A stretch of DNA of 64,000 bases from a virus. Its lineage: Duplodnaviria > Heunggongvirae > Uroviricota > Caudoviricetes. Positions 5,968-61,201 of this stretch are shown in pieces. The DNA lies in IMG/VR virus record IMGVR_UViG_3300009537_004349; one strand, given 5' to 3'. Both the position numbers and the translations under genes were made by a program. A model generated the notes under the pieces. The model saw nothing but the letters and a program-made list of their open reading frames with translations, had not been told where the DNA came from and did not search any database. Within the stretch, counting starts at the first letter, position 1. The number at the start of each line of letters is the position of its first letter.

Positions 5968-6261
5968 TTATCGCTCACGGGACTTTCTATACTCTGCGCA
6001 TTTCTGCATGAACTCGCACCATTCAGGAGGCGTGTGGTCAAGTTTGATACCATCTTCCAAAACCTGCCAAAGCTCTTCATCATTCTCCCAACACATCTCA
6101 TGACCAGTTTGCTCTCTGTGCTTTTTGATGGCATTCTCTAATTCTTTAATCCTGCCAATCATCCAAGCCGTCTCTTCGCAGTGATGAGCATCGAGTCGCT
6201 TGTATCTTTCTTCCCATGACAAACTGGGGTCATCTACATATTTCTTGATAGGAATTTTCAT
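5968..6261 (-). CDS. hypothetical protein
   Basis: 97-aa ORF with protein-like composition; overlapping ORF 5712..6134 judged less likely. Confidence 0.4.
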   Translation of the reverse strand: MKIPIKKYVDDPSLSWEERYKRLDAHHCEETAWMIGRIKELENAIKKHREQTGHEMCWENDEELWQVLEDGIKLDHTPPEWCEFMQKCAEYRKSRER

Positions 6262-6848
6262 TAGTATCTCTTTTCAGAAATCATCCTGCCAGAATCAAAC
6301 TTGCGTTCCCATCTAGGAGAGCCATCTTCATACCAACCCATATCTCTTCCATGTTGTCTGCCCTCTACCCATTCATGTTCGCTCTTCTTTACACCATTCT
6401 CATAATAGTGCCGAAAGATAATATGGTCAGAGCCGTCTAGGAATTCCATCGTGGCAAGTCTTTCGAACTTATCATCACGATAGTATACTTCATTTTCGTT
6501 CTTGTATTCGGCTATACCAGAAAGGATTTTGATGAATGCTTCAGTGATAAGCTCATCATTAATCGCTTGAACGTAACCCTTCTTAACTTTAGAGGCAATA
6601 AGTTTCTTAGCCTCTCGTTCACATTGGTCTTCGCTGTAATACTTCTTGGTATTAGACTGCCCAATGGTTCCTATTCTTCCCCAGTGAGTAGTAAACTCTT
6701 TTCCATTCGTTTCAAGGTTCCAGAACTTGTTAGACCTAGCATCCTGGAAAACTAGTGATGCACTTGCCATCGTATTGCCTTTCGTTTGAAGCTGCCACCA
6801 CTGCTCTCGGATAGCTATAGGGACTTTAACTCCTGCCAGACTCGTCAT
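6261..6848 (-). CDS. WGR-domain protein with C-terminal MORN repeats
   Basis: WGRIGTIGQ...KKLIASKVKKGY (WGR); C-terminal YYENG...W.EG..HG...W.EDG repeats (MORN). Confidence 0.55.
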   Translation of the reverse strand: MTSLAGVKVPIAIREQWWQLQTKGNTMASASLVFQDARSNKFWNLETNGKEFTTHWGRIGTIGQSNTKKYYSEDQCEREAKKLIASKVKKGYVQAINDELITEAFIKILSGIAEYKNENEVYYRDDKFERLATMEFLDGSDHIIFRHYYENGVKKSEHEWVEGRQHGRDMGWYEDGSPRWERKFDSGRMISEKRY

Positions 6849-13228: not shown

Positions 13229-13256
13229 TCTGTAATACCTTATAGTCTTTATTGGT
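13229..13256 (-). promoter_or_regulatory. candidate sigma70-like promoter (TTGACA-16 nt-TATAAG) upstream of the PTH2-HD gene
   Basis: Minus-strand TTGACA at 13251-13256 and TATAAG at 13229-13234 with 16-nt spacer; about 140 nt upstream of the SD-ATG. Confidence 0.3.
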
Positions 13257-13842
13257 CATTTGTCAATCCTAAAATTTCCAAAATGCGGTCGTCGGTGACA
13301 ACTCTATGCATTCGGATATCGTGCTGCTCGTGAGGTATGGAATCTATGAGCTGAAAGTCATAGCCTATCCCTATAATCTCGCCGTCGAATTTGGCAAGAT
13401 ATTTGTCATAGTATCCTCCGCCGTAACCTATTCTGTGTCCGTGGTGGTCAAAGGCTACACCGGGCACAATCAGAGCGTCTATGGCATTACGAGGATGGGT
13501 TACGAATCTTTTAGGCTGTGGAAAGCCCTGCCTAAAGTGATTCATGCTTCGTGGGTCATCCACTCGTGTAAACACCATGACCTGGTTTCTGCCACGAGTT
13601 CTAATGGCTGGATACAATGGAGCTATTCCCATAGCCAATAGATGATTGTGAATCTTCTGAGTCCTTACTTCGCTTTTAATAGGGACATATAATCCAACAC
13701 TATCATAATTGCTGATTATGGGGACAAGGTTACGAAAGATATGGGTGCTTCGTTCTTCCTGGTTTTGTGCAGGTTCCGCATCTCTTCGCGCCAGAGTTTG
13801 TTTTCTAATCCTGTTCTTGTCAGCTACAATTATACTGCTCAT
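13249..13842 (-). CDS. 5-formyltetrahydrofolate cyclo-ligase (MTHFS/YgfA family)
   Basis: ALIVPGVAFDHHGHRIGYGGGYYDKYL is the signature C-terminal motif of 5-FTHF cyclo-ligases. Confidence 0.7.
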   Translation of the reverse strand: MSSIIVADKNRIRKQTLARRDAEPAQNQEERSTHIFRNLVPIISNYDSVGLYVPIKSEVRTQKIHNHLLAMGIAPLYPAIRTRGRNQVMVFTRVDDPRSMNHFRQGFPQPKRFVTHPRNAIDALIVPGVAFDHHGHRIGYGGGYYDKYLAKFDGEIIGIGYDFQLIDSIPHEQHDIRMHRVVTDDRILEILGLTNDQ

Positions 13843-15945: not shown

Positions 15946-16114
15946 CTATGTAATCCTGAACAGAATACCTATAGAACGCAGGGTTTGGCTTCACTATGCC
16001 AGAGCATATCCACTTAACTGATGGTGGAGAGAACCCGGTATCTTCTATAATCAGTCTGTTTACGTTTCTACCAGACAACAGAAAGTGATACAGTCCATAT
16101 ATAGCTCTATCCAT
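15923..16114 (-). CDS. hypothetical protein
   Basis: 63-aa ORF. Confidence 0.35.
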   Translation of the reverse strand: MDRAIYGLYHFLLSGRNVNRLIIEDTGFSPPSVKWICSGIVKPNPAFYRYSVQDYIDAKSKVV

Positions 16115-16650
16115 TACCGACTCTTATACTTATCTACTAAGTTCTTAGCCAGCCTAAATGAACTCTCATTTTTCTTATGAGCAGCCATATCATCACGAAC
16201 TTTTGTAACAACCTCACCCAGCCAATTCTTACCATCCCAAGTCTTACGACTTTGAGTTTTAGGGTCGCCTTCTGCCAAACCAATTCCCCAAATCTTATCA
16301 TAAGGACTGGCTTCAACCAAAGTGGTGCCTGCTGTTTTTACCAGAGCATCTTTATGATTACTATTCTGACTGAACTTACAATAGTTCCCCACATACACAA
16401 GTTCACGTGCCACCTTAGCCCAAGCAGGAATGTCAAAACCTTTAACCTGCCTGCCAAGTTTCTTTTGCACACCAGGATGGTCTTCCGACATAATCTTTTT
16501 GGCAGTGGAATAGTCCTCGAACAATACAGCCTTCATGAACATCATAAACTGCTCTGCTCTGTTAAACTTCATTCCCTCGAACTCAAACGGGCTGCTACTC
16601 CACTGAGAGAAGGGTCCGTTCCAAAAGAATGTAAACTGCTCAGCCATCAT
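16114..16650 (-). CDS. NADAR (YbiA-like, DUF1768) family protein
   Basis: FFWNGPFSQWS...EGMKFNRAEQFMMFMKA...KLGRQV...LVEASPYDKIWGIGL matches the YbiA/NADAR domain. Confidence 0.6.
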   Translation of the reverse strand: MMAEQFTFFWNGPFSQWSSSPFEFEGMKFNRAEQFMMFMKAVLFEDYSTAKKIMSEDHPGVQKKLGRQVKGFDIPAWAKVARELVYVGNYCKFSQNSNHKDALVKTAGTTLVEASPYDKIWGIGLAEGDPKTQSRKTWDGKNWLGEVVTKVRDDMAAHKKNESSFRLAKNLVDKYKSR

Positions 16651-17677
16651 GATTCTCCATCACAGCCCAACCAGCCTGTGGTCGGATGGTAAAGTCATCA
16701 TCTTGTGCTGCACCAACAAGCCCAGCAACGAACTTCATTTTGATATCTGTACCTAGATATTCCCATACAAACGGGACAGATGAAATACCTAGAGGAAAAT
16801 CATCTGGATTATTACCAGAGAATCCGCCACCAGTATTCCACTTCTCAACGAATGGATTCTTTCTATCGCGTACCAGGTAGGGAAACAAGGTATTCACCCA
16901 TCCAGTCACATACGGTCCACCAGAACCACCACCAATCTTGTACAGCGAACGCCAGAAGTCTTTGTCTACATTTCCCTCTGCCGACTCTTTTACTTTTTCA
17001 AGCACAGGTAGTAGATGGTCAGTCCACCACTCAAGCCCGAACTCGCTCATGTAAGAGGCTTTGTCGATTAGCTTCTGCCAATCTTCAGGCTCTCCCTCAA
17101 GAGTAATGCTTGGGAAACCACAAAGAGTTCGGCAGATATAGTCAAAGTAGTTCTGCATAGCATCCATAAGTACAACTTCAGATGCTGCCTTCTCTAACAC
17201 ACCAGTTGTGCTAAAGTTACATACGATTAGGTCTCGCTTCTTACCGATATAGTCTGATATCTTATCGCTAAACTCATCGAAGCAACCCTCCCAATCATTA
17301 TCAGGGGAGCCTTTGACGAAATGGTCTCTGCGAACAATAATCTTTTTCTTACCCTCAAAGTCTACAAATTTCTTACGTAGCTTCTCAGCGTTAAGATTGA
17401 TATGTGTTGCAAGTCCACCAGAAATCGTGAGCCAGAACGCATCAGGGGATAGGCTCAAAGGACGATGTTGGTCAAACGCCATATGAATAGCTGACAATAG
17501 ACCGTGCTTTGTATCATTGATTAGCGGTGTATTAGACCAGGCTTCAATAGGTGGCTTCTCTAGCTCACCATATAACTTTCGCTTGCCCAGCTTGTTATCT
17601 AAAATAACTTTCGTATCTACTGTGTGCAATGGCTCCGTGGCCATCTGAACATCGTCTACTTGAAACTGAATGGACAT
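16640..17677 (-). CDS. hypothetical protein (345 aa)
   Basis: Long ORF; glycine-rich segments GGGSGGP, GGGFSG; no assignable family. Confidence 0.55.
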   Translation of the reverse strand: MSIQFQVDDVQMATEPLHTVDTKVILDNKLGKRKLYGELEKPPIEAWSNTPLINDTKHGLLSAIHMAFDQHRPLSLSPDAFWLTISGGLATHINLNAEKLRKKFVDFEGKKKIIVRRDHFVKGSPDNDWEGCFDEFSDKISDYIGKKRDLIVCNFSTTGVLEKAASEVVLMDAMQNYFDYICRTLCGFPSITLEGEPEDWQKLIDKASYMSEFGLEWWTDHLLPVLEKVKESAEGNVDKDFWRSLYKIGGGSGGPYVTGWVNTLFPYLVRDRKNPFVEKWNTGGGFSGNNPDDFPLGISSVPFVWEYLGTDIKMKFVAGLVGAAQDDDFTIRPQAGWAVMENHDG

Positions 17678-19955: not shown

Positions 19956-20165
19956 TTACTTAACCTCTCTTGCCACCCAGTTATGATTCTTCCACTGGTT
20001 AAATTGCTCTTTAGTCACAGCTATAAGAGTGGCACCGTCACAATTTCTGGCTGTGATAAACTCTTCGTCTCCATTACTCTTAACTCTGTAGAAAGCATAA
20101 AGCGGCGTACTATCAATTCCGGTATAGCCATACCTAGATTCGTCTAATACAACCTTAACGCTCAT
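19956..20165 (-). CDS. hypothetical protein
   Basis: 69-aa ORF. Confidence 0.45.
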   Translation of the reverse strand: MSVKVVLDESRYGYTGIDSTPLYAFYRVKSNGDEEFITARNCDGATLIAVTKEQFNQWKNHNWVAREVK

Positions 20166-20766
20166 CAGCCATTAGCTTTTCTACAATGTTATACACGCCA
20201 GGATTCAATTCCTTAATCCTGGGCACTAACTCGTGCCTGATATAGTTCCTCTTGTACTTTGTGTCTACATTAGATGGGTCTTCTACCCAGTTATAACCAT
20301 GCCAGTTCATGTAGTTTTCGATATCTTCCCGCTTCCACAAACGGAATGGCCGAATACAATTTTTGTTACTGTATTTAATGGTACCAGGATATCCTCGAAC
20401 CATCGTACACATGATGTACTCTTCCAAGCAATCATCGAAGTTGTGGGCAAGAATAACCGGCTCTGAAAAACTATGAAAGAAGTTGTACCTCTTCTCTCTC
20501 CACCAAGCCTCCCTAGATTCCCCCTTTGGTGGCTCCTCTTCTAAGATGTGCCACTTGCAAGTAACGCCGTAGTATTCCTTCATAGACAGCACAAAATCAT
20601 ATGCCTCGTCAGAATACAGCCCTGTCTTGTGGTTTACATGTAGCATTCCCAAGAGATTATCTTTCCTTGACTCTTTGTAGAGCCAATGAAATGCTGCCAT
20701 GCTATCGATACCACCACTCACAGCAACCCAATACTTTTTAGGCAATGGATGTGTCAGTCTGAACAT
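20155..20766 (-). CDS. tilS: tRNA(Ile)-lysidine synthetase-like PP-loop ATPase (TilS N-terminal domain)
   Basis: VAVSGGIDS PP-loop, HVNHKTG and AHNFDDCLE motifs as in the TilS catalytic domain. Confidence 0.65.
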   Translation of the reverse strand: MFRLTHPLPKKYWVAVSGGIDSMAAFHWLYKESRKDNLLGMLHVNHKTGLYSDEAYDFVLSMKEYYGVTCKWHILEEEPPKGESREAWWREKRYNFFHSFSEPVILAHNFDDCLEEYIMCTMVRGYPGTIKYSNKNCIRPFRLWKREDIENYMNWHGYNWVEDPSNVDTKYKRNYIRHELVPRIKELNPGVYNIVEKLMADER

Positions 20767-43024: not shown

Positions 43025-43664
43025 TCAGGTAATCCTGTTGATAAATGGTCATTGTTTCAAGATGGAGTCCAGTAAGCTTCTTATGTCGAGAATCATCCAG
43101 GCAAATAGCATACATGCCCTCGTCATCTCTCCATTCACGTAGCCCAAACTGAGAATTATGCCCACATACTTGCAGCTTCCACTTTTCTCTACGCACCGGC
43201 TCTCTGCGATTCCAAAGGATGGTAGTCTCTCCCTTCTCCCACACACCGCTACCAAGTTCGCAATTCTCTTTTAGAACTACTTCATCTTCTATAGCAGCGG
43301 GACGAAGGAAAGCATGACTAATTAAAGTGTCATCGATTTCTATGAACAAGGGTAAACCCTGTAACCACTCAACCACATCCTCTGGCACTTCGTAGTCATA
43401 CGAGCGCAGAGTATGTCCGCCTCCATTATAGAGCCAGATGTCAGATGAATAAAACCCTCCCTTAGTTAGGTTGTCAATCATCATGTGTTCGTGGTTGCCC
43501 ATAATAGCGCGACCGTTCTTCATAAACCAGTCTACTACCTTGGCTGAGTCGGGGCCTCTGTCAACCATATCACCTACAGATATAACCTCACCTTCAGGCA
43601 TCTTATCCAAGAGTGCCATTAGTGTATTATATTCTCCAGCTATATCGCCAATGATATTGGTCAT
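43017..43664 (-). CDS. PPP-family metallophosphoesterase (lambda Ser/Thr phosphatase / ApaH-like)
   Basis: IGDIAGEY, GDMVDRGPDS and GNHE motifs in canonical order. Confidence 0.7.
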   Translation of the reverse strand: MTNIIGDIAGEYNTLMALLDKMPEGEVISVGDMVDRGPDSAKVVDWFMKNGRAIMGNHEHMMIDNLTKGGFYSSDIWLYNGGGHTLRSYDYEVPEDVVEWLQGLPLFIEIDDTLISHAFLRPAAIEDEVVLKENCELGSGVWEKGETTILWNRREPVRREKWKLQVCGHNSQFGLREWRDDEGMYAICLDDSRHKKLTGLHLETMTIYQQDYLNE

Positions 43665-45206: not shown

Positions 45207-45231
45207 TTTATTTTTATTGGGCGGTTAGCCG

Positions 45232-45308
45232 CGCCCCGGGTGGGATTCGAACCCACGACATGCAGGGTTTTAGAGACCCCAGCTCTAACCAGACTGAGCT
45301 ACCGGGGC
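45232..45308 (-). tRNA. amber-suppressor-type tRNA (anticodon CUA), isotype unknown; no encoded CCA
   Basis: Reverse complement GCCCCGG-TA-GCTC-AGTCTGGTTA-GAGC-T-GGGGT-CTCTAAA-ACCCT-GCATGTC-GTGGG-TTCGAAT-CCCAC-CCGGGGC-G. Anticodon loop is 7 nt with U33, C34-U35-A36 and A37. Discriminator is followed by CGG rather than CCA. Flanks extend the acceptor complementarity to 9-10 bp. Confidence 0.6.
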
Positions 45309-51073: not shown

Positions 51074-51150
51074 TGGAGGCTAGGGTAGGATTCGAACCTA
51101 CGAACATTCGGGTTGCAACCGAAGCCCTTAAGCCACTTGGGTACCTAGCC
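51074..51150 (-). tRNA. tRNA-Cys (anticodon GCA)
   Basis: GGCTAGG acceptor, anticodon arm TTCGG-TTGCAAC-CCGAA, GGTTCGAATCC, CCA. Confidence 0.65.
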
Positions 51151-51765
51151 CTTAGGTGCGACCTTTCTAAATTCGCTCATGATATTGTTGAAGACAGGTT
51201 TGTACTTCTTTTGGAAGTAAGACCAGTCATCTATACCACAGCCCTTGATTTGATTCCAGTAGTGATTAGCAGCAGCATAGTCGGTAATTTTACCATGCTC
51301 TGCTAGCTGTTTGCCAAACATGGGAATACGAAGCGCATGAAACAAACTCTTCTTACCCACATAGATGTCATTCTCTACTGTAAACTTCTTCTTAGCCTTC
51401 ACAAAGCTATTGGAAGCTTTCGCAGATACCGCTCTACGCAATACCTGATTATCTATTACAACTTCAAAGCTAAGCTTGTCTTTTAATACCATTTCTTTTG
51501 GGAGATACAAGCACTCAAGAGCACTAATCTCATGCTCCTGTAATCTCTTGTACCATTCTGTCAGACTAAATACCGTGACATTTACTTTCTCGTGCTTGAA
51601 TTGTACAAATGGTTCCTCGATGCTAGACACCATAAGGTAGTCGTAGTCAGAGGACTCATCGTATGTCCCGTATACCCTGGAACCATACAGATATAGATTC
51701 GTTGCCTTGTACACATTGAATGGGTTATGGGTCAGAATCGTGTTGATTACTTCTTTATGTTCCAT
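51145..51765 (-). CDS. Pol-beta-superfamily nucleotidyltransferase-like protein
   Basis: LYLYGSRVYGTYDESSDYDYLMV matches the GS...DxD minimal nucleotidyltransferase motif. Confidence 0.5.
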   Translation of the reverse strand: MEHKEVINTILTHNPFNVYKATNLYLYGSRVYGTYDESSDYDYLMVSSIEEPFVQFKHEKVNVTVFSLTEWYKRLQEHEISALECLYLPKEMVLKDKLSFEVVIDNQVLRRAVSAKASNSFVKAKKKFTVENDIYVGKKSLFHALRIPMFGKQLAEHGKITDYAAANHYWNQIKGCGIDDWSYFQKKYKPVFNNIMSEFRKVAPKG

Positions 51766-51964
51766 AAAGTTTCTCGATTAGTTTGGCGAGCCTTAGAGCC
51801 TCTCGCTTTTCTAGATAGACATAGGCACGAGTGGAATCAAAAGTCTCAAGCTCTATAGTAATGCCTTCTGAGTAAGGCTCTCCTCGATTGTCATAAGACA
51901 CGGAGCAGTGGTCTCCATCTTCACTGTAGAAGTCTTCTCTCTGCTTGTACTTATCTACTTTCAT
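51755..51964 (-). CDS. hypothetical protein
   Basis: 69-aa ORF. Confidence 0.45.
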   Translation of the reverse strand: MKVDKYKQREDFYSEDGDHCSVSYDNRGEPYSEGITIELETFDSTRAYVYLEKREALRLAKLIEKLYGT

Positions 51965-52320
51965 TTCCCACCCGAGTAGAGCTTCTTAACTACGTCGGAC
52001 AATACCGATTCAGTGAGCATCTCTGCTACCTGACCCTTGTCTTCGTAGTCTTCTATCTGCACGTTGAGTTTGCCTTCTGGTGTAATAGTGATGTGCATGT
52101 TTAGAGCATCACCTATACGCATCCACCACGTACTATCTCCCATATGCTCTATGTGGAGCCAGTTGTCAACTACTAATTCATCAAAGAAGGACTTGCCATC
52201 GCCTCGAACATCCCTAAAGGCAGACTTCTCTCTATCACTTGGAGCATTAAACCTCCACTCGTAGCCTGCTGGGTATGTGTACTTAGGTTCGCCCATTGCT
52301 GTTCTCCAGTGTTGGGACAA
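51961..52320 (-). CDS. hypothetical protein
   Basis: 119-aa ORF. Confidence 0.5.
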   Translation of the reverse strand: MSQHWRTAMGEPKYTYPAGYEWRFNAPSDREKSAFRDVRGDGKSFFDELVVDNWLHIEHMGDSTWWMRIGDALNMHITITPEGKLNVQIEDYEDKGQVAEMLTESVLSDVVKKLYSGGK

Positions 52321-53200
52321 CTACATTCAAAGGCTTACCAATACTAATGCGTGCCTCTGAACCTCGGCAGAACTCATGCTCTTCCCAAGAATCAATACTG
52401 AGCAATCCCTCATTATCATTCAAAGAGTACAGCGTGACTTCTTCCCCTGGCGCAATATACTCAGCTGTAGGAGCTGATACGCCATTAGGGGTGGTACTAT
52501 ACATTTCAGTGACGGCAAAGCCACAGAACTTATCTCCAGGGCTCCAAGGCGGACGACTACTGGATGAGGCATACCATCCTGTACTGCCAGCTCCAGTGGC
52601 AAAGATGATACCAGAGCACTTCTGCTCATACTCTTTACCCTTGTACACTATGACATGGCGAGACATATGATTCCTTTGTCGCTCGCCAAAGAAATACTCG
52701 CTGGTAGCAGGAGTCACTTTTTGCCCATCAATAGTAGCTTCCAGTCTAGTCCAGGGCTCAATTACGAAATCTTCAAAGTCAATGGCTTCAACTAGATTAA
52801 AGATATCTTCTTCATCACCAATAGACCATCTAGTCAGACAACCTACACTGCGCTCAGGGTCAGAATTAATACCCAGGATAGGCAGGTCTCCAATTAGATG
52901 ACTAACACATGTGAAGCTGTTGTCGCCACCAAGAACTAGTACCATGTTGATATCTGACCGAAGCTCTATGCCCTTCAGCCCCCGAGCAGCCTGCAATGAA
53001 TCCATCATGATTAGTTCAGAGGATGGTAATGTGTTGGCCAAACATTCTCTAACGTTCACTTGTTTCTCGTGACTACACAGAATGGCATCTAAGTTAGCAT
53101 GTTCTTTGCTATACTTAGCCACAAGTTGTTCGTGAGAAAGACCAAAACATTTTCTCTCCCACTCATACTTAGAATGCTTCGCAACAACTAATATGTTCAT
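52283..53200 (-). CDS. NAD kinase-like protein (ATP-NAD/DAG-kinase fold)
   Basis: VLVLGGDNSF...ILGINSDPERSVGCLT vs NadK VVVGGDGSML...VIGINRGNLGFLT; IIFATGAGSTGWYASS vs LIISTPTGSTAYSLSAG; GGDG variant GGDN. Confidence 0.6.
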   Translation of the reverse strand: MNILVVAKHSKYEWERKCFGLSHEQLVAKYSKEHANLDAILCSHEKQVNVRECLANTLPSSELIMMDSLQAARGLKGIELRSDINMVLVLGGDNSFTCVSHLIGDLPILGINSDPERSVGCLTRWSIGDEEDIFNLVEAIDFEDFVIEPWTRLEATIDGQKVTPATSEYFFGERQRNHMSRHVIVYKGKEYEQKCSGIIFATGAGSTGWYASSSSRPPWSPGDKFCGFAVTEMYSTTPNGVSAPTAEYIAPGEEVTLYSLNDNEGLLSIDSWEEHEFCRGSEARISIGKPLNVVVPTLENSNGRT

Positions 53201-53379
53201 TCGACTTCTCTATCTAACTGGTCTCTGATAAGCTGGCGAACTAATTCATCGAACGTCACACCAAGCTCATCGGCTAATTCCTCTAGCTCCTGAACGAGTT
53301 CTTCTTCAAGCTCGATTTCGACCCCAATTAATTCTTGATCGTCATCATCATCCGACATCTTGCTCACTCTTTTTGCCAT
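53197..53379 (-). CDS. hypothetical highly acidic small protein
   Basis: 60 aa, D/E-rich. Confidence 0.4.
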   Translation of the reverse strand: MAKRVSKMSDDDDDQELIGVEIELEEELVQELEELADELGVTFDELVRQLIRDQLDREVE

Positions 53380-53710
53380 ACTTCTTCTTGAGGCGCAGAT
53401 ACTCCTTTAGCTCTGCCTGCTCAATACGCTGGCGTTCCATCGTCTCACGCTGTTCGCGCTCTTGACGCTCTGTATCAGTCTCATCTCGCGAGCCGGAAAG
53501 CAGCAATACTCCCGCGCCCTTCTTCTGTACAGCATACACTTTGAGTTCACTAAAGGGAGAAGTGACATGCTTGGCTTTCAGCTCCTGCAACTTCTCAATA
53601 AAGCTATCGAGTGTAACTGCATCTTGACCTTCAGCAGCGACGACCTCGATATCTTCGCTGACCTTCTTCACTTCAACTTCTGTTTCTTCACTCATTGTGC
53701 AATTCCTCAA
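53348..53710 (-). CDS. hypothetical charged protein
   Basis: 120-aa ORF. Confidence 0.5.
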   Translation of the reverse strand: MRNCTMSEETEVEVKKVSEDIEVVAAEGQDAVTLDSFIEKLQELKAKHVTSPFSELKVYAVQKKGAGVLLLSGSRDETDTERQEREQRETMERQRIEQAELKEYLRLKKKYGKKSEQDVG

Positions 53711-53978
53711 TTGATTTTCTTATGAATTCTTTTTTCTCACGCTCTTCCTCTGTAAGAACGTTATCGAACCACTCTTTAGATTCCTGAGAATACTTACCTC
53801 TCAGGTTCCACCTATCGTATCCAAAGTTATGGTTATATCCGTACTCTCTTTTCTCTAAGTACGATTCAAACCATACCCAGCGCTTATCTTCACAATGCTT
53901 TGGTAAAAAGGCAAAGACCTTGCACCAAGCAACATCTCCGAACCTGGGATTAGGCGTCTTGCCCGTGCCCCACCTCAT
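53688..53978 (-). CDS. hypothetical protein
   Basis: 96-aa ORF. Confidence 0.45.
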   Translation of the reverse strand: MRWGTGKTPNPRFGDVAWCKVFAFLPKHCEDKRWVWFESYLEKREYGYNHNFGYDRWNLRGKYSQESKEWFDNVLTEEEREKKEFIRKSIEELHNE

Positions 53979-54454
53979 CGCTGGAAACGTCCTGCCATTC
54001 GCTTGATAGCCTCAAGTGGAACACCATGCACATTGCGTTCAGCGTACAATCTGAGGCTTTCTTCATCAAAGCTACCAACAGTATGCTGGACAACCCGGTA
54101 ACCGTTGCGCTTGGCCATCTTCTTATAAGGGGCCATTTCCTTTTCCATAGTATTGGTGTTGTCGATGATAACTACAGTAACACCCTTCTGCATAGCTGTG
54201 TCCGCTGTGTGCTTAGAATAACCGTGAGCGTTGCCCAGCTTATCCCTGTCGAAGTGATAGTTTCCGTCTTCGTCAGTAAAGTAATCATCTGCGGAGCATT
54301 TGACTAAACTGAGCCCCAGCGTCTTGCAGGCTTCCATTACTGCCTTTACATACGTCGACTTTCCGCTCCCCGGAACCCCTCTCATCAGCAACAGCGTCTT
54401 TTGCAGACTGGACTTCTCGTCCTCCAACATCTTCAAAATGTCTTTTGAACTCAT
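53975..54454 (-). CDS. polynucleotide 5'-kinase-like P-loop protein (T4 Pnk kinase-domain homologue); true start may be internal
   Basis: GVPGSGKSTYVKAV...DDYF and KGVTVVIIDNTN...GYRVVQHTV...VPLEAIKRM parallel T4 Pnk GCPGSGKSTWAREF...RDDYR and KGVIISDTNLN...GWKVEHKVF...VPIDVLRSM; 170-bp overlap with the upstream ORF. Confidence 0.6.
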   Translation of the reverse strand: MSSKDILKMLEDEKSSLQKTLLLMRGVPGSGKSTYVKAVMEACKTLGLSLVKCSADDYFTDEDGNYHFDRDKLGNAHGYSKHTADTAMQKGVTVVIIDNTNTMEKEMAPYKKMAKRNGYRVVQHTVGSFDEESLRLYAERNVHGVPLEAIKRMAGRFQR

Positions 54455-54791
54455 AATTCATCTCCAATGCCACTTTCATTGTAGACTTGGCAATATCTTC
54501 TTCCTTGCCCTCAATTTCTTCGCCATTTCTCAGCTTAGAACGGACAACGGAGTTAAGAGCTTCTTTAGCAAACTCTCTTATATTATTCCTATCACTATCT
54601 AGATGGTGTATACGTTCATACAAATCTTTGGCACGAGCTATAGCTTCCTTCTCATTCATGGCATAAACCATCATGCCAAAATCAATGTTGGGCAGGGAGT
54701 CGATAGTAGCACACCCTAAAGCTGTACCCCAAGATTCATCAGAGTGGAGACTTCTATAGACATAGAACGTCTCTAACTTACTAGAATCCAC
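54285..54791 (-). CDS. hypothetical protein; C-terminal frame overlaps the Pnk-like gene
   Basis: 168-aa ORF; overlap leaves its true 3' end uncertain. Confidence 0.4.
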   Translation of the reverse strand: MDSSKLETFYVYRSLHSDESWGTALGCATIDSLPNIDFGMMVYAMNEKEAIARAKDLYERIHHLDSDRNNIREFAKEALNSVVRSKLRNGEEIEGKEEDIAKSTMKVALEMNYEFKRHFEDVGGREVQSAKDAVADERGSGERKVDVCKGSNGSLQDAGAQFSQMLRR

Positions 54792-54802
54792 AGGAGGCTC
54801 CT

Positions 54803-55498
54803 TTACTTGCGAGTTACCGCTCGTCTTGCTCGATTCTCCTCAGCAACTTCAGCCATGACTTCATCACTCGTAACTACTTGTACACCAGCGTCTTGCATTT
54901 CTTGTACAGCTTTGTCAGAGTCAGCAGGATCCAAATTAACCCCGCGACAGCCATCCAGAACAAGCCTTGTGTCAAACCCCAAAGCCACTGAATCAAGGGC
55001 TGTAAACTTGACGCAATAGTCCGTAGCAAGCCCCATAACATAAACAGTAGTAACGCCCCTGCCCCTGAGAAAATCTCCCAGGCCCGTCGAATACCTGACT
55101 TCTTCTCCATTGATAATAGCCTTGTTGTCAAAAAATGCCGAATAAGAATCAACAGAGACTCTCATTCCTTTGCGAAAGAGTGCTGTCAGATGCGTCACAT
55201 CAAGATTCGAATGAAGTTCGGAACCCTGAGTTCCCCAAACACAATGGTCTGGCCACATGACCTGCGGCACACCATTCAACTCTCCCAATGACATTACCTC
55301 TGCACCTTCGTTGTTAGATGCAAAGCTCCTGTGTGCAGGTGGATGATAGTCCTGAGTAGCTACGACAAGGGCCTCATCGCCTAAGAAACCCCACTGAAGT
55401 TTATTAGCGACAGCCATTACCTCATCGCCTGTATTAACTGCTAATGCCCCGCCAGGACAAAAATCATTCTGAAGGTCTACTAAGATTAACGCTTTCAT
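54803..55498 (-). CDS. pncA: nicotinamidase/pyrazinamidase (isochorismatase family)
   Basis: MKALILVDLQNDFCPGGALAV..., WPDHCV, DSYSAFFDN, MGLATDYCVKFTALD align along the length of E. coli PncA including the catalytic Cys. Confidence 0.85.
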   Translation of the reverse strand: MKALILVDLQNDFCPGGALAVNTGDEVMAVANKLQWGFLGDEALVVATQDYHPPAHRSFASNNEGAEVMSLGELNGVPQVMWPDHCVWGTQGSELHSNLDVTHLTALFRKGMRVSVDSYSAFFDNKAIINGEEVRYSTGLGDFLRGRGVTTVYVMGLATDYCVKFTALDSVALGFDTRLVLDGCRGVNLDPADSDKAVQEMQDAGVQVVTSDEVMAEVAEENRARRAVTRK

Positions 55499-56048
55499 TG
55501 TATTGCTCCTCTGTCAATTTAGACAGGTGTGTGAGCTTGATAGAATACTCTCCGCCTCCACCAATAACGTCGCGTTCACATCTTACCCTGCCATCTATAA
55601 TTCCTGTTACTTGAACATAATCTTCTTTGTGTATTTCAAGTAGCAGGTCTAATACCTGGTCGTCTGCTTCTGTAAGTATAGCCTGAATAACCGTAGTGTG
55701 TGTATCGTATGCTGTGTTCTCTACATAAAGATTTATGTAGAGTCTTTCCTCATCACTATGGTCAAAGACATATCGGACTTTACCTGCGAATGAAACGTGA
55801 GTTCCTTTTATTTTTCCCCACTTTTCATTCGCATACTTCACAGCCTGCATATGAGTTGTGTTCTTTGGTAGCCTCTCACAAACATTCCAGGGATAGGGTC
55901 CGTCAGAAGATTTACTAACTTCTTGTTCTACTCTATTCTTCCTAGAAAAATCTGATTCAGTGAGAACAACAGTAAACATGGTGGCAAACATACCCAGTAG
56001 AGCACCAAGCATCATACCTAGAACAAACCTATCTACTGTCATTTTCAC
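55464..56048 (-). CDS. hypothetical membrane-anchored protein
   Basis: 194 aa, N-terminal TM helix. Confidence 0.5.
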   Translation of the reverse strand: MKMTVDRFVLGMMLGALLGMFATMFTVVLTESDFSRKNRVEQEVSKSSDGPYPWNVCERLPKNTTHMQAVKYANEKWGKIKGTHVSFAGKVRYVFDHSDEERLYINLYVENTAYDTHTTVIQAILTEADDQVLDLLLEIHKEDYVQVTGIIDGRVRCERDVIGGGGEYSIKLTHLSKLTEEQYNESVNLSRPSE

Positions 56049-56430
56049 TAGCCTCCCGCTTCATCTCTGAGAGAAACTTTACAGCCTCGTCTTTATCCTT
56101 AATGCAAGCTGACACTCTGTCTGTACTACCATTCGTTCTCTCTTGAACAACATAATAGCAATCATCCCAAGCATCCATGTGAAATACGTTTGTCAATCTT
56201 GCGGGAGGTTCATCTGGAACCAATACATTATACGAAACGATACTGGACGCCAAAATAAAAGCCAGTCCTACAAGGGCGGACACCACCTGCGCGCCTTCGC
56301 TTTCGCAATAGCTCTCCCACATTCTGCTGACACCAAAAATAGGACGGGGTTTTTCTTTCAACTGCCTCTTAAGGTCAGCGTTTTCTTGTTCAAGCTTGTC
56401 AATCAGTTTGGTCAGTATCTCGTCGCTCAT
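56029..56430 (-). CDS. hypothetical membrane protein
   Basis: 133 aa, central TM helix. Confidence 0.45.
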   Translation of the reverse strand: MSDEILTKLIDKLEQENADLKRQLKEKPRPIFGVSRMWESYCESEGAQVVSALVGLAFILASSIVSYNVLVPDEPPARLTNVFHMDAWDDCYYVVQERTNGSTDRVSACIKDKDEAVKFLSEMKREASENDSR

Positions 56431-58333
56431 TGATATACTTCCACATGTCTTCCAGTTCTATTGTGAAGCCCCCGGAAAGAATCGGGAACCTACACCAGCT
56501 TTTTGGGTCAAGGTTCTTATCATCTACATGGAACGACGGAGCATATCGCTCTCTCTTCCATTGGTTTCTAGACCATAGTCTAAAGAACTTCTCAATCCAA
56601 ACGCCTAATTGATTATCGTCAAACTTGCCCCTTAATGTCTTAAACACTTCGAGAGGCGGCTTCTTATCTCTAATAGCCAGACCTTCAATCGTATCAAGCA
56701 AATCATACGGCATAAGGTCTGATTCATCGTGCTGATTATACTTCTCTGGTCTTAATTCTGCGGTGGGCTTTTGTTCGATAACCAAGTCGAGTGACTTCCA
56801 AACGAACTCATTTCGTACCCACACCAACCACTTAAGCAGAAAATCCTTATCAATCCCTGCCAGTGGACTTAAGCCACCACAAGTATCTCCATCCATAGTT
56901 GCGTACCCAACAGCTGCCTCAGAACGATTACTTGTAGCCAATAAGATAGCGTTATTCAAGTTTGCTACCATCCAAGCGCTTGGTGCTCGTGCTCGTGCTT
57001 GAATGTTCTGCATGGTGATATCATCAGTATCCCAGCTTAGCTCGCGACCGATAGCTCTCTCGACTCTAGCTGTATACATCTCCACCATTGCATCTACATC
57101 CAGCTCCATATAATCAGCGCCGAGTTCCTCAGCTACAGCTCTTGCTGCGTTCTGAGTTATGGTAGTACTATGTCGTGTGGGCTGGTAAATGCAAGTAAGG
57201 AACGCTCTTGTAGCAGTATACTTAAGCTTCCTTTCAAAGGCGTCTTTGTAATCCTTTCTTCCATAGTAGGGAATAAGTCTTACCAAACATGCTGCTGCTG
57301 TAGAATCTGCGCCCCCGCTAAGTGAGACAACAAATCCATTCGACCTTGTTTTGCGCATGTAATCAAACATACCCAAGCACATTGCGCGTGTGAACTCTTC
57401 GAACTCTGAAGCAAGCTCTGTGCTAATAGGTGCAGAAGGTTCCGCATCAGTTAACGGAGACTCAGCTCCCAGAATATCTTCAAAGTTATAGGCTCCTTGA
57501 AGATTTGGCTGATACGAACCCAGTCTCATTCTGTTCTGAGTATTGATGTCCAGGTCAACTACTGCTGTGGTTAGCTGCCCACTGTTATAGCTGAACCTAT
57601 CACCGTTTGCTACCACAACACCATTGTTGGCGATGATAGTATCACCATCATAAATGGTTCGTCCAGACTCATTGCCAAGCAGATTGCAGTAAACATAAGC
57701 TACATTAAGAGAGCGTGAACCCTCTTCCACAATCCGCAACCTGTTTTTGTGCTTGCCGAATGCAAAATGGCTTGCACTGGGATTAAGGATTACCTCAACA
57801 CCATCAGAGGCTAATTTAGCTCCCACTCTATTTGCTGCCCAAGCATCTTCACAAATCTCAAATCCAATCTTGACGCCGCCGAAATCGAATCTTAAGTCAC
57901 CAATCTGAGTATCCAACTCATTGTGATACTCGGTAACCCCGATAGGCCAAGGCTTGAACCAACGATGTTCATAATGCACACCATCATTAGCGAGATGCTT
58001 CTTGGGTACAAGACCAGCAATCTCCCCATTGGATAGCACTGCTACACAGTTGTACAGTGCTCCCTTGTGCAACACTGGCAGACCCACACACACAAACATA
58101 TCTGTAGCTGCTGATGCTACTGGCTCAAGATATGAATAAGCTCTCTTGATTAGTGATGGGGAATGGAATTGGTCCTCGCATCCATAGCCAGTAATGCAAA
58201 GCTCAGGCAAGCAAAGGATTCTTACATCCTCCTCTTTAGCCCTTTGAATAGCGTAATAAACATTGTTTAGATTGTTTTGCCAATCCAGAGGAGTTTGGTT
58301 TAGTGCTGCTGCCCCGAGCTTTACTCTTCGCAT
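56399..58333 (-). CDS. nadE: glutamine-dependent NAD+ synthetase (N-terminal nitrilase/CN-hydrolase domain + C-terminal PP-loop NAD synthase domain)
   Basis: LCLPELCITGY and FEICEDAW (CN-hydrolase E/K/C triad context); VVSLSGGADSTAAA PP-loop. Confidence 0.85.
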   Translation of the reverse strand: MRRVKLGAAALNQTPLDWQNNLNNVYYAIQRAKEEDVRILCLPELCITGYGCEDQFHSPSLIKRAYSYLEPVASAATDMFVCVGLPVLHKGALYNCVAVLSNGEIAGLVPKKHLANDGVHYEHRWFKPWPIGVTEYHNELDTQIGDLRFDFGGVKIGFEICEDAWAANRVGAKLASDGVEVILNPSASHFAFGKHKNRLRIVEEGSRSLNVAYVYCNLLGNESGRTIYDGDTIIANNGVVVANGDRFSYNSGQLTTAVVDLDINTQNRMRLGSYQPNLQGAYNFEDILGAESPLTDAEPSAPISTELASEFEEFTRAMCLGMFDYMRKTRSNGFVVSLSGGADSTAAACLVRLIPYYGRKDYKDAFERKLKYTATRAFLTCIYQPTRHSTTITQNAARAVAEELGADYMELDVDAMVEMYTARVERAIGRELSWDTDDITMQNIQARARAPSAWMVANLNNAILLATSNRSEAAVGYATMDGDTCGGLSPLAGIDKDFLLKWLVWVRNEFVWKSLDLVIEQKPTAELRPEKYNQHDESDLMPYDLLDTIEGLAIRDKKPPLEVFKTLRGKFDDNQLGVWIEKFFRLWSRNQWKRERYAPSFHVDDKNLDPKSWCRFPILSGGFTIELEDMWKYINERRDTDQTD

Positions 58334-58336
58334 GTC

Positions 58337-59497
58337 TTAATCCTTGATTTGAAATACCTTTTTCAGGTACTTGACGTATTCTTCATCGCGACACATTCCC
58401 TTGCCAGCGCTGTCAGAAATCTTAGCGACCGGTCTACCATTACATTCTACAATTTTCATCACGATTTGTAAAGGGGTAATGCCATCGAAGTCATTTGTCA
58501 GGTTTGTACCAATGCCGAAGCTGACGTTGATATCTTTATTAAGCCCATCATACAAGGCTTTAGCTTTCTCAAGGCTTAGACCATCGCTGAATACCAGGGT
58601 CTTGGTCTTAGGGTCAATGCCCAGCTTTTTGTAGTGTTCAATGGCTGCCGCTGCCCACCAAAAAGGGTCGCCGCTATCGTGCCTAAGTCCGTCATAGAGC
58701 TTAGCAAAATACAGGTCGAAGTCCCTAAGGAATGCGTCAAACCCAACCACATCGGTCAGTGCGATACCCAGGTCTCCTCGGTACTCATCCACCCACGCTT
58801 GCAACATTCGCTTCTGTGAATCAATCAGCGGAACATCTAAAGCCTGTCCCACCTGAAGGAACTCGTGAGCCATAGTCCCAATAGGAGTTAGTCCATAATT
58901 TTTGGCAAAGAATACATTTGAGGTACCCCTAAATTGCTCTATTAGGTCAGAGCAACTTAATCTGTCTATTACCTCATCATGCCAATCGTGACTAAATCTT
59001 CTTCTAGTGCCAAAATCTACGAATGAAAATCTTGATGCTTTGGCAACTTCAATCTTATCTATTAGCTTTTTTAATCCATTCTCTAATAGCTCATCTGTGG
59101 CATAGTCTGAAAAGTATACCTCATTCGCAATAGCGAGTACAGGGACCTCCCAATAAACTGTGAGGAACCACGGACCTTTGACAGTGATGCTAAGCTCACC
59201 GTCTTTGTGTTCCACATTCAAGTGAGATAAGTCAGGGCGATAAAGTTTCAGGAAATCGATGTAGCTGTCCTTAAAGAACCTAATGTTCCTCAAGTAATCC
59301 AGCTCATCTTCAGTGAATTTTAGAAGGGAAAAATGTTCCAGCTCATGTCTAATACGTCCAACCTTTGCAGGCGTCCACTCAGCATCATTGCGACACTTGA
59401 ATTCGTACTCGACATTTACCCAGGGGAATTGATGTAGGGCGACTTGGCCCATCGTGAACTTGTACAGGTCTGTATCAAGTAGGCTTGTTACTATCAT
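58337..59497 (-). CDS. pncB: nicotinate phosphoribosyltransferase
   Basis: SLLDTDLYKFTMGQVALHQFP...EYEFKCRN parallels E. coli PncB [20 protein letters not shown]...EFRCRG; 386 aa. Confidence 0.85.
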   Translation of the reverse strand: MIVTSLLDTDLYKFTMGQVALHQFPWVNVEYEFKCRNDAEWTPAKVGRIRHELEHFSLLKFTEDELDYLRNIRFFKDSYIDFLKLYRPDLSHLNVEHKDGELSITVKGPWFLTVYWEVPVLAIANEVYFSDYATDELLENGLKKLIDKIEVAKASRFSFVDFGTRRRFSHDWHDEVIDRLSCSDLIEQFRGTSNVFFAKNYGLTPIGTMAHEFLQVGQALDVPLIDSQKRMLQAWVDEYRGDLGIALTDVVGFDAFLRDFDLYFAKLYDGLRHDSGDPFWWAAAAIEHYKKLGIDPKTKTLVFSDGLSLEKAKALYDGLNKDINVSFGIGTNLTNDFDGITPLQIVMKIVECNGRPVAKISDSAGKGMCRDEEYVKYLKKVFQIKD

Positions 59498-60005
59498 CGG
59501 TCTTACTCAGCTCTTTCTCAAGTCGCTTGTTTTCTCGACTTAGTATTTGACAGGCTTCTTCTAATTCAGCAACCCTGTCTTCCCACGCCGCCTGCCTTAA
59601 ATCTATCACTGCGGATTTGACACGGTACTTCTCGATTGAATCTTGGTAATCCTCTTTGTACTTCTTCAACTCTTGCTTCGTTTTGTTAAGCTCAGAAGTC
59701 AGACTGTCAATCTTGGCTTTTACTTCTACAGCAAACTCCTTGACTTGCCCAACTAAAATATCGCTGGCTCTTTCAAAACCTTCAGCATACTTCTTACGAC
59801 TTGCAATAGAACTAAACGCAACCAGTTTACCGTCTATGATAACATCGATTCGCTTGTCCTTCTGTCTCTTCAAAAACTTACACAGGTCATAAAGATGACT
59901 TCCATCTTCTATATCAGCTCTAAAAGCTTTGTGCTGTTGCTTGTTCTTTACCTGTTTAATCTGTAACCTTGAGTTCATAACCCGCCTTTCGTTGGCGGAA
60001 GGCAA
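59475..60005 (-). CDS. hypothetical coiled-coil protein
   Basis: 176 aa, heptad-rich C-terminal half. Confidence 0.5.
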   Translation of the reverse strand: MPSANERRVMNSRLQIKQVKNKQQHKAFRADIEDGSHLYDLCKFLKRQKDKRIDVIIDGKLVAFSSIASRKKYAEGFERASDILVGQVKEFAVEVKAKIDSLTSELNKTKQELKKYKEDYQDSIEKYRVKSAVIDLRQAAWEDRVAELEEACQILSRENKRLEKELSKTDDSNKPT

Positions 60006-60084
60006 GGGATTCGAACCCTCATCACACAGTTAAGGTGAACTGGTTTAGCAAACCAGCGCAGCAAGCCGTATCTGCCTACCTTCC
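59993..60084 (-). tRNA. tRNA-Ser (anticodon GCU), type II
   Basis: GGAAGGT acceptor, GCAG/CTGC D-stem, anticodon arm CTGGT-TTGCTAA-ACCAG, long variable arm, GGTTCGAATCC, CCA. Confidence 0.65.
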
Positions 60085-60085
60085 A

Positions 60086-60349
60086 TCATCTCTGCCACAG
60101 TAATGTCTCTATTAAGAACTGGGCTTTTTGTGAAGGCTGTTTAGTTAGGAACCCACGACCTCTCGCCTGTGAATAGTTTGGCTTGCGCTTAAACTGTTTT
60201 ACAGTAGGGTCAAGTATGAGTCCCGATTCGTGTCTTAAAAACCAATGAGAATCGCCTTCGTGTCTCATATTCATTGGTGTCCAACCTGCCTGCTTCCCAC
60301 CCATTAGATGGTATAGCGCTTCACAGGTTGCGTAACAATTTCCTCTCAT
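60086..60349 (-). CDS. hypothetical protein
   Basis: 87-aa ORF. Confidence 0.45.
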   Translation of the reverse strand: MRGNCYATCEALYHLMGGKQAGWTPMNMRHEGDSHWFLRHESGLILDPTVKQFKRKPNYSQARGRGFLTKQPSQKAQFLIETLLWQR

Positions 60350-60651
60350 AGCTCTGCCAGTTTGATAATGAACAATGTCTCAATCATGTGTTCAAGTGAG
60401 TCAAACTTTTCTCCCTGGCTCCACCTGACTGCATCTAATCCATGTAGTACGCAGGGGACACGCTTTCTGGCTGTTACCTTATGCACACTCTTAAGTTCAT
60501 GCGCATTGTCTTCCATACTTCGTGCAAGCTCGCTGTCCTTATGAACTACTGTTAGTTGCCCATAGTGACTGCTGTAAAACTTATAGTCCGACAGTCCCTT
60601 GTTCTGTTTCCAGTTACGGAACTCATATCGTCTACGTTCACCTTTAGTCAT
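60346..60651 (-). CDS. hypothetical protein (start at Met63 after tRNA-Gly)
   Basis: ATG at 60649-60651. Confidence 0.45.
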   Translation of the reverse strand: MTKGERRRYEFRNWKQNKGLSDYKFYSSHYGQLTVVHKDSELARSMEDNAHELKSVHKVTARKRVPCVLHGLDAVRWSQGEKFDSLEHMIETLFIIKLAEL

Positions 60652-60659
60652 ATCGTTTC

Positions 60660-60737
60660 TGGAGCCCGTACTCGGATTCGAACCGAGGACCCTCTGCTTG
60701 GAAGGCAGACGCTCTAATACCGCTGAGCTACACGGGC
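60660..60737 (-). tRNA. tRNA-Gly (anticodon UCC)
   Basis: GCCCGTG acceptor, TAGCTCAGCGG D-arm, anticodon arm TCTGC-CTTCCAA-GCAGA, GGTTCGAATCC, CCA. Confidence 0.7.
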
Positions 60738-61201
60738 TTGATTTTTTGAATAGCTCTAAACATCGAGCTAGAAATGTGCGAAAGGTTTCTATCACAGATG
60801 AAATATACAATAGGAATCTCCAGACCCAAATCCTCATTCCAATATTGCTGGTTCATCTCATACTGTAGGTCGTGTCCGTTTCGTAGACCTCGAATCACAG
60901 CATTCAAATTGTGCTTCTTAACTTCATCTACCAGGAACCCAGCAAAGGATACCACTTTAACTCGATAGTTTTCATAGTTGCCTACTTCATCACCAAGTTC
61001 TTCGTTAATAGCATCAGCTAACTGGTTGTCGCTTAGCTTAAAGCTCTCGATGTCTTTCTCAGGATTGTAACCACGAGCTACAATAATCTCATCGAATACT
61101 TTGAGAGCCTTGTTAAGAATATCAGCATGACCCTTGTGCCAAGGATTAAATGAGCCAGGATAGATTGCTCTACTCACTGTCTGATACCACATCTTCTTCA
61201 T
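60728..61201 (-). CDS. cytidylyltransferase-fold adenylyltransferase, closest to phosphopantetheine adenylyltransferase (CoaD/PPAT); candidate NaMN/NMN adenylyltransferase
   Basis: RAIYPGSFNPWHKGHADIL vs CoaD RAIYPGTFDPITNGHIDIV; AVIRGLRNGHDLQYEM...SHISSSMFRAI vs VLIRGLRAVADFEYEM...SFISSSLVKEV; 157 aa. Confidence 0.65.
   Translation of the reverse strand: MKKMWYQTVSRAIYPGSFNPWHKGHADILNKALKVFDEIIVARGYNPEKDIESFKLSDNQLADAINEELGDEVGNYENYRVKVVSFAGFLVDEVKKHNLNAVIRGLRNGHDLQYEMNQQYWNEDLGLEIPIVYFICDRNLSHISSSMFRAIQKIKPV

Follow-up and report, generated by a model that had tools for sequence, protein, structure and literature searches.

A putative NadD-less nicotinamide salvage block with an NADK2-like kinase in the accessory region of a jumbo phage

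Here we describe a stretch of 64,000 nucleotides (the window, meaning the whole of the DNA that was analysed) from a virus of the Caudoviricetes (IMG/VR record IMGVR_UViG_3300009537_004349), in which a compact array of genes encodes homologues of the nicotinamidase PncA, the nicotinate phosphoribosyltransferase (NAPRTase) PncB and the glutamine-dependent nicotinamide adenine dinucleotide (NAD+) synthetase NadE, together with a protein related to NAD kinases. By their predicted activities, the first three represent three of the four enzymes of Preiss-Handler nicotinamide salvage. We consider it probable that this array constitutes a deamidated salvage module that lacks NadD and is accompanied by an NADK2-like kinase, and that it raises the supply of NAD and its phosphate (NADP) in cells infected by a jumbo phage. 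The array and the genes that support this proposal are the following:

58337..59497, minus strand: PncB, predicted type I NAPRTase, nicotinate (NA) and phosphoribosyl pyrophosphate (PRPP) to nicotinate mononucleotide (NaMN); assigned by hidden Markov model (HMM)
56399..58333, minus strand: NadE, predicted two-domain glutamine-dependent NAD+ synthetase, nicotinate adenine dinucleotide (NaAD) to NAD+; assigned by HMM
54803..55498, minus strand: PncA, predicted nicotinamidase, nicotinamide to nicotinate and NH3; assigned by HMM and structure match
52283..53200, minus strand: NADK2-like NAD kinase (NadK), which would convert NAD+ to NADP+; assigned by family profile and AF2 fold
51074..60084, minus strand: tightly packed same-strand array that holds the module, bounded by tRNA genes, with PncB–NadE–PncA…NadK inside
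59993-60084, minus strand: tRNA-Ser(GCT), boundary of the array on the PncB side
51074-51150, minus strand: tRNA-Cys, boundary at the far end

PncA, PncB and NadE are members of their families and keep the catalytic residues; the activities of these three proteins and of the NAD kinase are predicted from these features. PncA scores 266 bits with the NCBIfam model NF008623 (cutoff 174), its closest solved structure is the nicotinamidase of Acinetobacter baumannii (2wt9, 160 bits), and it retains the residues aligned to the D-K-C triad (D8, K110, C162) and to the metal site (D50, H52, H85). PncB belongs to the type I class, which is about 400 aa long and ATP-stimulated, and shows the Pfam domains NAPRTase_N and NAPRTase, scores of 537 bits with NF003704 (cutoff 379) and 454 bits with TIGR01514, a match of 376 bits to PncB2 of Pseudomonas aeruginosa (1yir) and a retained GTMAHE motif. 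The equivalog models identify it as a NAPRTase, the match to the PHROG family of nicotinamide phosphoribosyltransferase (Nampt) being weak (2e-17). NadE joins a CN_hydrolase (glutaminase) domain to an NAD_synthase domain in Pfam; it passes TIGR00552 (93.6 bits, cutoff 63.65), stays below the cutoffs of the full-length equivalogs (283 vs 479) and matches the glutamine-dependent NAD synthetase of Cytophaga hutchinsonii (3ilv) with 608 bits. Its nitrilase triad (E44/K111/C161) and its SGGADS loop are invariant across the phage homologues (alignment A2), and its start codon lies 3 nt past the stop codon of PncB. Chance matches are not a concern, because the open reading frames (ORFs) are long and the family scores strong. 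The seven ORFs named in a first-pass annotation of this DNA (these four, a CoaD-like adenylyltransferase, a NADAR protein and a Nudix hydrolase) are all present on the minus strand, at the coordinates given in this text and in the families then assigned. That annotation had also proposed to confirm PncA, NadE and PncB by homology; equivalog or family models were passed in each case, and none of the three fell in an unrelated family.

The window covers an accessory region, rich in tRNA genes, of a jumbo-phage genome. Identical copies of the proteins of two window ORFs were found on a single JGI contig of 291,701 bp, and the 64 kb analysed represent 22% of this 291.7-kb source contig. Looked up by exact sequence, PncB, the CoaD-like protein and the NadK-like protein returned no record. 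All genes of the window lie on the minus strand at a coding density of 94%, with 27 tRNA genes interspersed on the same strand. Six otherwise unannotated ORFs match PHROG families found only in phages (phrog_14850, for example, at E 5.9e-59). Also encoded are a T4-type RNA ligase and a phage-type nucleotidyltransferase, as well as an SPFH protein of crAss-like type, and no bacterial housekeeping gene occurs among the window genes scanned. The phage origin assumed in the first-pass annotation is upheld by the 27 tRNAs, the coding on one strand, the PHROG-only families and the 291,701-bp contig. Searched by megablast, the 8.9-kb region has zero matches among 50,697 phage records, and tblastn with the concatenated proteins gave only scattered matches to deposited phages, at 25-46% identity; therefore, this is a phage without a close deposited relative. 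Within the array the spacing between genes ranges from -38 to +11 nt, with a 170-nt overlap as single exception, and the counts of promoter and terminator signals are below shuffled expectation.

We found the same gene order in four further phage-like contigs of 11.8 kb to 481 kb (L012, L015, L017 and L181), so the block is conserved in related phages, a check that had been suggested beforehand. The closest one, L012 (11.8 kb), shares ~75% DNA identity with the window and is fully syntenic: a coiled-coil ORF, PncB, NadE, a small ORF, PncA, a homologue of the window ORF orf168, an AAA_33 kinase, three small ORFs and NadK, followed at intervals by the nucleotidyltransferase and the RNA ligase Rnl1. 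Its PncB and NadE are 80% and 82% identical in amino acids to those of the window. Between the two sequences, nonsynonymous differences per site (pN) amount to 0.11-0.18 and synonymous ones (pS) to 0.7-0.8, which is saturated (0.12 and 0.71 in PncB); the low pN in the presence of saturated pS therefore indicates purifying selection on all four enzymes. At greater distance, L015/L016 (468 kb), L017 (481 kb) and L181 (72.5 kb) share the order NadE-PncA...NadK-nucleotidyltransferase...RNA ligase (Rnl1) with 48-59% amino acid identity. PncB stands ahead of NadE in L015 and L181, whose fetched loci reach far enough upstream, and the locus of L017 stops short of that position. PncA follows NadE in L012, L015, L017, L181 and the IMG/VR contig L008 (47-75% identity), and the kinase is downstream of PncA in the first four of these. 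NadE of L015 and L008 is 53-54% identical to that of the window.

The same positions are not always occupied by the same kind of enzyme. PncB is of type I in the window, in L012 (a match over the whole protein) and in L181, where the fetched locus takes in no more than the last 93 residues of a NAPRTase of 405 aa, and of type II (~480 aa) in L015 (1261-2700) and L008 (8520-10004); also, NadE of L181 (4093-4878) has a single domain, whereas that of the window has two. Since syntenic slots hold different PncB and NadE subtypes, a case of non-orthologous displacement, the function of the pathway itself appears to be selected. In L008 and a second IMG/VR contig, L009, the operon is full, PncB(type II)-NadE-PncA-NadD, with NadD above its equivalog cutoff and with NadE and PncA 53% and 47% identical to those of the window; in another phage-like locus (L029), NadD adjoins NadE. 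A scan of IMG/VR with PncB alone returned seven contigs that have little in common with the window except pncB. Few deposited phage records carry these genes (14 have PncB, 16 NadE and 13 PncA), and they belong for the most part to Atu_ph07 and to huge phages known from metagenomes.

The NadE subfamily is also common in metagenome contigs otherwise unlike the window, with PncB upstream in 23 of 80 loci, often of type II, and PncA downstream in 13 of the 80. Bacterial members come from Planctomycetota, Verrucomicrobiota, Myxococcota, Acidobacteriota and Cytophagales, with ~47-56% identity. In this sense, the phage block mirrors a bacterial operon whose NadD is encoded elsewhere. We also considered the relatives of NadE as a guide to the host and rejected this use, the 47-54% identity being spread over many phyla.

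The fourth enzyme required a more indirect identification. The direct HMM matches of the 52283-53200 protein are weak, with a maximum of 36.5 bits among NCBIfam models whose cutoffs are about 300, and its NAD-kinase-like identity, already noted in the first-pass annotation, is upheld by family profile and fold. An exhaustive HMMER search yielded 1,202 relatives, and for a profile built from 59 of them (A1) the match to human mitochondrial NADK2 has an E-value of 2.7e-31, that to canonical NAD kinases one of ~1e-12. The AF2 model (pLDDT 93.7) has NADK2 (7r4l) as best fold match, with E 9e-21 and a TM of 0.76, and its top 50 fold matches are NAD kinases without exception. The fold is the two-domain one of NAD kinases, and the motifs NSDPxRSxG and TGxGS(T/K)(G)W are present, as in NADK2. 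Moreover, relatives of the kinase are fused to an archaeal-type nicotinamide mononucleotide adenylyltransferase (NMNAT; P0138), to NadD (P0258) or to a two-domain NadE (P0175, 960 aa), and further ones to Nudix domains (the relatives noted with fusions are P0138, P0258, P0175, P0250 and P0255). Such fusions connect the family with the final part of NAD synthesis and point to the conversion of NAD+ to NADP+ as its best-supported putative activity. Members of the family also occur in DPANN archaea and on at least one contig of bacterial origin; there are zero matches in the 50,697 deposited phage records and zero in IMG/VR, whether the query is the one protein or the alignment. The link between a phage NAD synthesis block and an NAD kinase appears to be unreported.

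In the pathway that we propose, PncA would convert nicotinamide to nicotinate, from which PncB would form NaMN with consumption of PRPP and ATP; NaMN would then become NaAD, most likely through the essential NadD of the host or else through a phage gene outside the window; NadE would convert NaAD to NAD+ at the expense of glutamine and ATP, and the NAD kinase would finally produce NADP+. In the infected cell, the module would raise the flux from free nicotinamide or nicotinate to NAD(P) and so serve phage replication. NAD+ may also be rebuilt in this way from the nicotinamide freed by NADase defence effectors, either as a by-product or as the main selective value. Both the dependence on host NadD and this physiological role are inferred. 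With respect to the first-pass annotation, which had drawn the deamidated route from nicotinamide to NAD+ in full, PncA, PncB and NadE are indeed present, and the step from NaMN to NaAD is without a gene in the window.

Some observations weigh against this proposal. Searches of the window for NadD or NMNAT (a phage NadD as query in tblastn and phmmer, and a NadD HMM and an archaeal NMNAT over six frames) returned only the CoaD-like ORF, at E 0.002-0.08, and neither enzyme was found in L012 or in the ~20-kb neighbourhoods of L015 and L017, so that the encoded route is incomplete in view, with 22% of the source contig visible. The kinase reaches 18.5 bits with Pfam NAD_kinase, below the gathering score of 25.5, and its family carries GGDN where the canonical motif is GGDG. 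In addition, the spread of NadE relatives over phyla (47-54%) gives no view on PncA or PncB of the host itself. As NadD/NMNAT is not encoded in the window, the conversion of NaMN to NaAD should come from the host or from phage DNA outside the window; a NadD of the 291,701-bp contig was not among the best 120 of 5,759 matches to the NadD profile.

A possible but not favoured alternative is that the block is a dedicated anti-defence pathway, which would be a fourth NAD reconstitution pathway ('NARP4') and would be kept mainly because nicotinamide set free by TIR, SIR2 or SEFIR NADases can be turned back into NAD+. The phage would thus escape abortive infection in the way that NARP1-3 allow, and the difference from our proposal resides only in the target of selection. 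An anti-defence role of the block is plausible: PncA begins at nicotinamide, the very product of NADases, and NARP2 and NARP3 set the precedent that plain salvage enzymes defeat NAD depletion (bioRxiv 10.1101/2024.02.11.579819; PMC13464706). Genes of ADP-ribose biology also accompany the module in some relatives, with NADAR two genes upstream of PncB in L015 and near PncB in L007, and an ADP-ribosylglycohydrolase near PncA in L017. Iyer et al. likewise saw NADAR beside phage NAD-salvage genes (PMC9503650), and the window itself encodes a NADAR protein, but 36 kb away from the module. Also, a route of four steps that consumes several ATP equivalents, with NadD not encoded in the window, fits this idea less well, and the NAD kinase and the surrounding folate and nucleotide genes suit general metabolic support equally. 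Reviews see NAD synthesis by jumbo phages mainly as resource supply (PMC13282480). We would put forward only tentatively, and with somewhat more doubt, a broader version, in which a clade of giant phages (contigs of 72 to 481 kb) would carry a fourth, deamidated NAD reconstitution route and the first phage NAD kinase (NADK2 type), restoring both NAD+ and NADP+ after NADase attack by the host and deliberately borrowing host NadD.

The incomplete route could in principle be closed inside the window, and the first-pass annotation had looked there, to a gene on the PncB side of the array:

60728-61201, minus strand: CoaD-like adenylyltransferase of the phosphopantetheine adenylyltransferase (PPAT) type; TIGR01510 113.8 bits (cutoff 103.3)

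If this protein had been recruited as NaMN adenylyltransferase, the phage would possess a self-sufficient Preiss-Handler pathway. It is the sole HIGH-motif nucleotidyltransferase of the window, 1.2 kb upstream of PncB; it passes the PPAT cutoff by just 10 bits, and phages have no obvious need of a PPAT. The T/HxGH motif usually opens with T in PPAT and with H in NadD and NMNAT; the family to which the phage protein belongs has H there, within an invariant YPGSFNPWHxGH, an oddity that would be compatible with a shifted specificity. Nevertheless, the score with TIGR01510 is above the cutoff, and the NadD/NMNAT models, with cutoffs of 112-240 bits, give at most 27 bits (TIGR00482 20.5 with a cutoff of 112, NF002243 27.4 with a cutoff of 127). 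All structure matches are PPAT, namely the 34 of 34 solved structures matched by sequence and the top 50 Foldseek matches of its model (pLDDT 86.5; TM about 0.7). The genomic context argues in the same direction: two tRNA genes and a small ORF (in order tRNA-Gly, an 87-aa ORF and tRNA-Ser) stand between the CoaD-like gene and PncB, and the gene was not found in the module-carrying relatives, neither in ~20 kb around the kinase of L015 and L017 nor in the whole 11.8 kb of L012. The family comprises 535 matches at 50-85% identity, mostly on large phage-like contigs. In four of these (L010, L011, L178 and L179) it has zero Pnc neighbours; it is directly beside RtcB in two of the four, one of which four has its own NadM, and in other contigs it is near a CCA-adding enzyme and NT5C. 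Recruitment is therefore very improbable, and the role as NaMN-to-NaAD enzyme that the first-pass annotation had in mind is not borne out: the protein is a PPAT by HMM and fold, its family is unlinked to Pnc genes, and we leave it outside the module.

A theme of coenzyme A biosynthesis, which would pair the CoaD-like gene with a DFP-like one (38481-39773), was considered and rejected, the latter reaching ~37 bits against CoaB cutoffs above 200. This 430-aa protein, which is not a genuine CoaB, joins a distant DFP/CoaB-like domain to a region that weakly resembles class II aldolase, and it has a 40% identical homologue in the 595-kb phage LR756511.

That the block is bacterial DNA, either a host operon or a mis-binned contig, is hardly credible: PncB(type II)-NadE-(x)-PncA is common in metagenome contigs without other similarity to the window and the NadE subfamily has a wide distribution among Planctomycetota, Verrucomicrobiota, Myxococcota and Cytophagales, but the surrounding 64 kb are phage-like in their single coding strand, 27 tRNAs, PHROG-only families and T4-type RNA ligase, the closest bacterial NadE is just ~54-56% identical, and the block stays within the same phage backbone in the relatives.

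Besides the module, several genes of the window deserve mention, beginning with those inside the array:

54285..54791, minus strand: orf168, adjoining PncA downstream, candidate accessory component
56029..56430, minus strand: orf133, between NadE and PncA, 75% identical to the ORF in that place in L012
46836-47942, minus strand: T4 Rnl1-type RNA ligase
51145-51765, minus strand: Pol-beta-type nucleotidyltransferase
53975-54454, minus strand: AAA_33/PNK-like kinase (PNK, polynucleotide kinase)
16114-16650, minus strand: NADAR protein, by Pfam
34446-34889, minus strand: Nudix hydrolase, by Pfam, with generic weak matches

With zero matches in Pfam or PHROG, orf168 (54285..54791) overlaps with its 3' 170 nt the next gene, that of the AAA_33 kinase (53975-54454). 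Homologues lie directly after PncA in L012 (4934-5440, 77% identity), L017 (1425-1853, 49%) and L181 (5507-5866, 43%), the similarity covering the N-terminal ~125 residues, and the protein may be a partner of the NAD module that was so far unrecognised. The neighbouring orf133 has no family match in the Pfam and PHROG searches and is conserved only in the close relative L012. Also between NadE and PncA, a 194-aa ORF (55464-56048) constitutes an insertion of ~550 bp that L012 lacks; its translation, read by eye, has a hydrophobic N-terminal stretch.

The RNA ligase, the nucleotidyltransferase and the AAA_33/PNK-like kinase around the module are likely an RNA-repair set. The AAA_33 kinase was considered as a kinase of the NAD pathway and discarded, as it matches PHROG polynucleotide kinase and RNA ligase families; because of these matches and of the nearby Rnl1 and nucleotidyltransferase, we read it as an enzyme of RNA-repair type. 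In the relatives the Pol-beta-type nucleotidyltransferase always adjoins NadK or is near it, and an Rnl2-like ligase and a CCA-adding enzyme are carried as well.

Further from the module, NADAR and Nudix had been seen as fitting the NAD theme. Both families are confirmed, but the Nudix ORF (34446-34889) gives generic weak matches without a specific ADP-ribose or NAD signature, and we exclude it from the theme. The NADAR gene overlaps by 11 nt a DUF4419 gene (345 aa, 253 bits; the two span 16114-17677), and the best match among deposited viruses is 46% identical, in 'Virus Rctr197k'. A suppressor-type tRNA with anticodon CTA is located at 45231-45308 (called tRNA-Pyl by ARAGORN); TAG is the stop codon of 21 of the 101 longer ORFs of the window, which gives no hint of recoding here. 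Other accessory genes encode a WGR-domain protein (6261-6848), a 5-formyltetrahydrofolate cyclo-ligase (13249-13842), a TilS N-terminal-type PP-loop ATPase (20155-20766), a SpoT/RelA-type HD hydrolase domain (36315-36935) and a calcineurin-like phosphoesterase (43017-43664).

Depletion of NAD+ is among the most common outcomes of bacterial anti-phage immunity, and phages are known from experiments to counter it by three pathways to date, none of which takes the deamidated route. PncA, PncB, NadE and the NAD kinase constitute a clean, conserved and selectively maintained candidate set for a further reconstitution pathway. They raise the questions of whether phages manipulate NADP besides NAD, and of whether one step of a phage pathway may be left to an essential enzyme of the host, NadD. 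Should the block be anti-defence, it would be a pathway with a built-in host dependency; if it is a metabolic booster only, it would add one more case to the 'NAD-jumbo phage' theme.

The first-pass annotation recognised only two published phage pathways of NAD reconstitution, a count that is outdated in view of the Preiss-Handler clusters of jumbo phages (PMC11662467) and of NARP3 (PMC13464706). Osterman et al. described NARP1 and NARP2 in 2024, with no mention of the deamidated route in their text (bioRxiv 10.1101/2024.02.11.579819). NARP2 (Nampt/NadV and Nmnat/NatV; Vibrio phage KVP40) resembles the window block in taking nicotinamide and PRPP to NAD+, but it does so in two amidated steps via NMN, whereas the window route would be deamidated, via NA, NaMN and NaAD, with other enzyme families; NARP2 was shown by experiment to counter NAD-depleting defence. 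The block does not belong to NARP2, its phosphoribosyltransferase being a NAPRTase and NMNAT being not found in the window. NARP1 (Adps and Namat) and NARP3 (a PnuC-like transporter and a NadR-like enzyme, published in 2026; PMC13464706) also restore NAD+ pools from phage-encoded genes. NARP1 re-joins ADP-ribose and nicotinamide and NARP3 imports nicotinamide riboside; neither has nicotinamidase, NAPRTase or NAD synthetase, and none of the module genes scanned belongs to Adps, Namat, PnuC or NadR. The phage NAD-synthesis enzymes listed by Iyer et al. are NadV, NadM and NadR only (PMC9503650; PMC7824862).

The closest precedent are the 'NAD-jumbo phages' of Li et al. (Microbiome 2024), who counted 174 jumbo phages in which a salvage or Preiss-Handler pathway is complete, with clustered pncB-nadD-nadE genes among the cases, mentioned pncA genes too, and read them as phage-driven NAD+ synthesis (PMC11662467). 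That work is bioinformatic, its authors state that validation is lacking, and NAD kinase and NADP are not mentioned in it (PMC11662467). Clustered pncB and nadE in jumbo-phage genomes are common to both studies, both purely bioinformatic; their clusters are complete, with nadD, whereas the window block has PncA and an NAD kinase and is without NadD, and their phages are mostly gut phages of Bacteroidota (PMC11662467), whereas the window lineage is unrelated to any deposited phage. On the bacterial side, pncA-pncB-nadE operons share the three enzymes and their order, with NadD elsewhere, and one of them, PA4918-4920 of P. aeruginosa, is upregulated during infection by the jumbo phage PA5oct (PMC7318152). 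The phage NadE and PncA are at most ~56% identical to the nearest bacterial ones, are placed in a phage backbone and have gained an NADK2-like kinase; the phage block likely derives from the bacterial PncB-NadE-PncA operon. As to the kinase, mitochondrial NADK2 (PDB 7r4j/7r4l/7n29) is the best profile and fold match of the 52283-53200 protein, from which the phage-type family differs in having GGDN, not GGDG, and in being without the NADK2 insertions. Phage NAD-synthesis clusters of this type have thus already been described computationally, and the window is a solid new example, which adds to prior work two features, an NADK2-like kinase that is conserved and the repeated lack of NadD, and, as a correction, places the CoaD-like gene outside the module.

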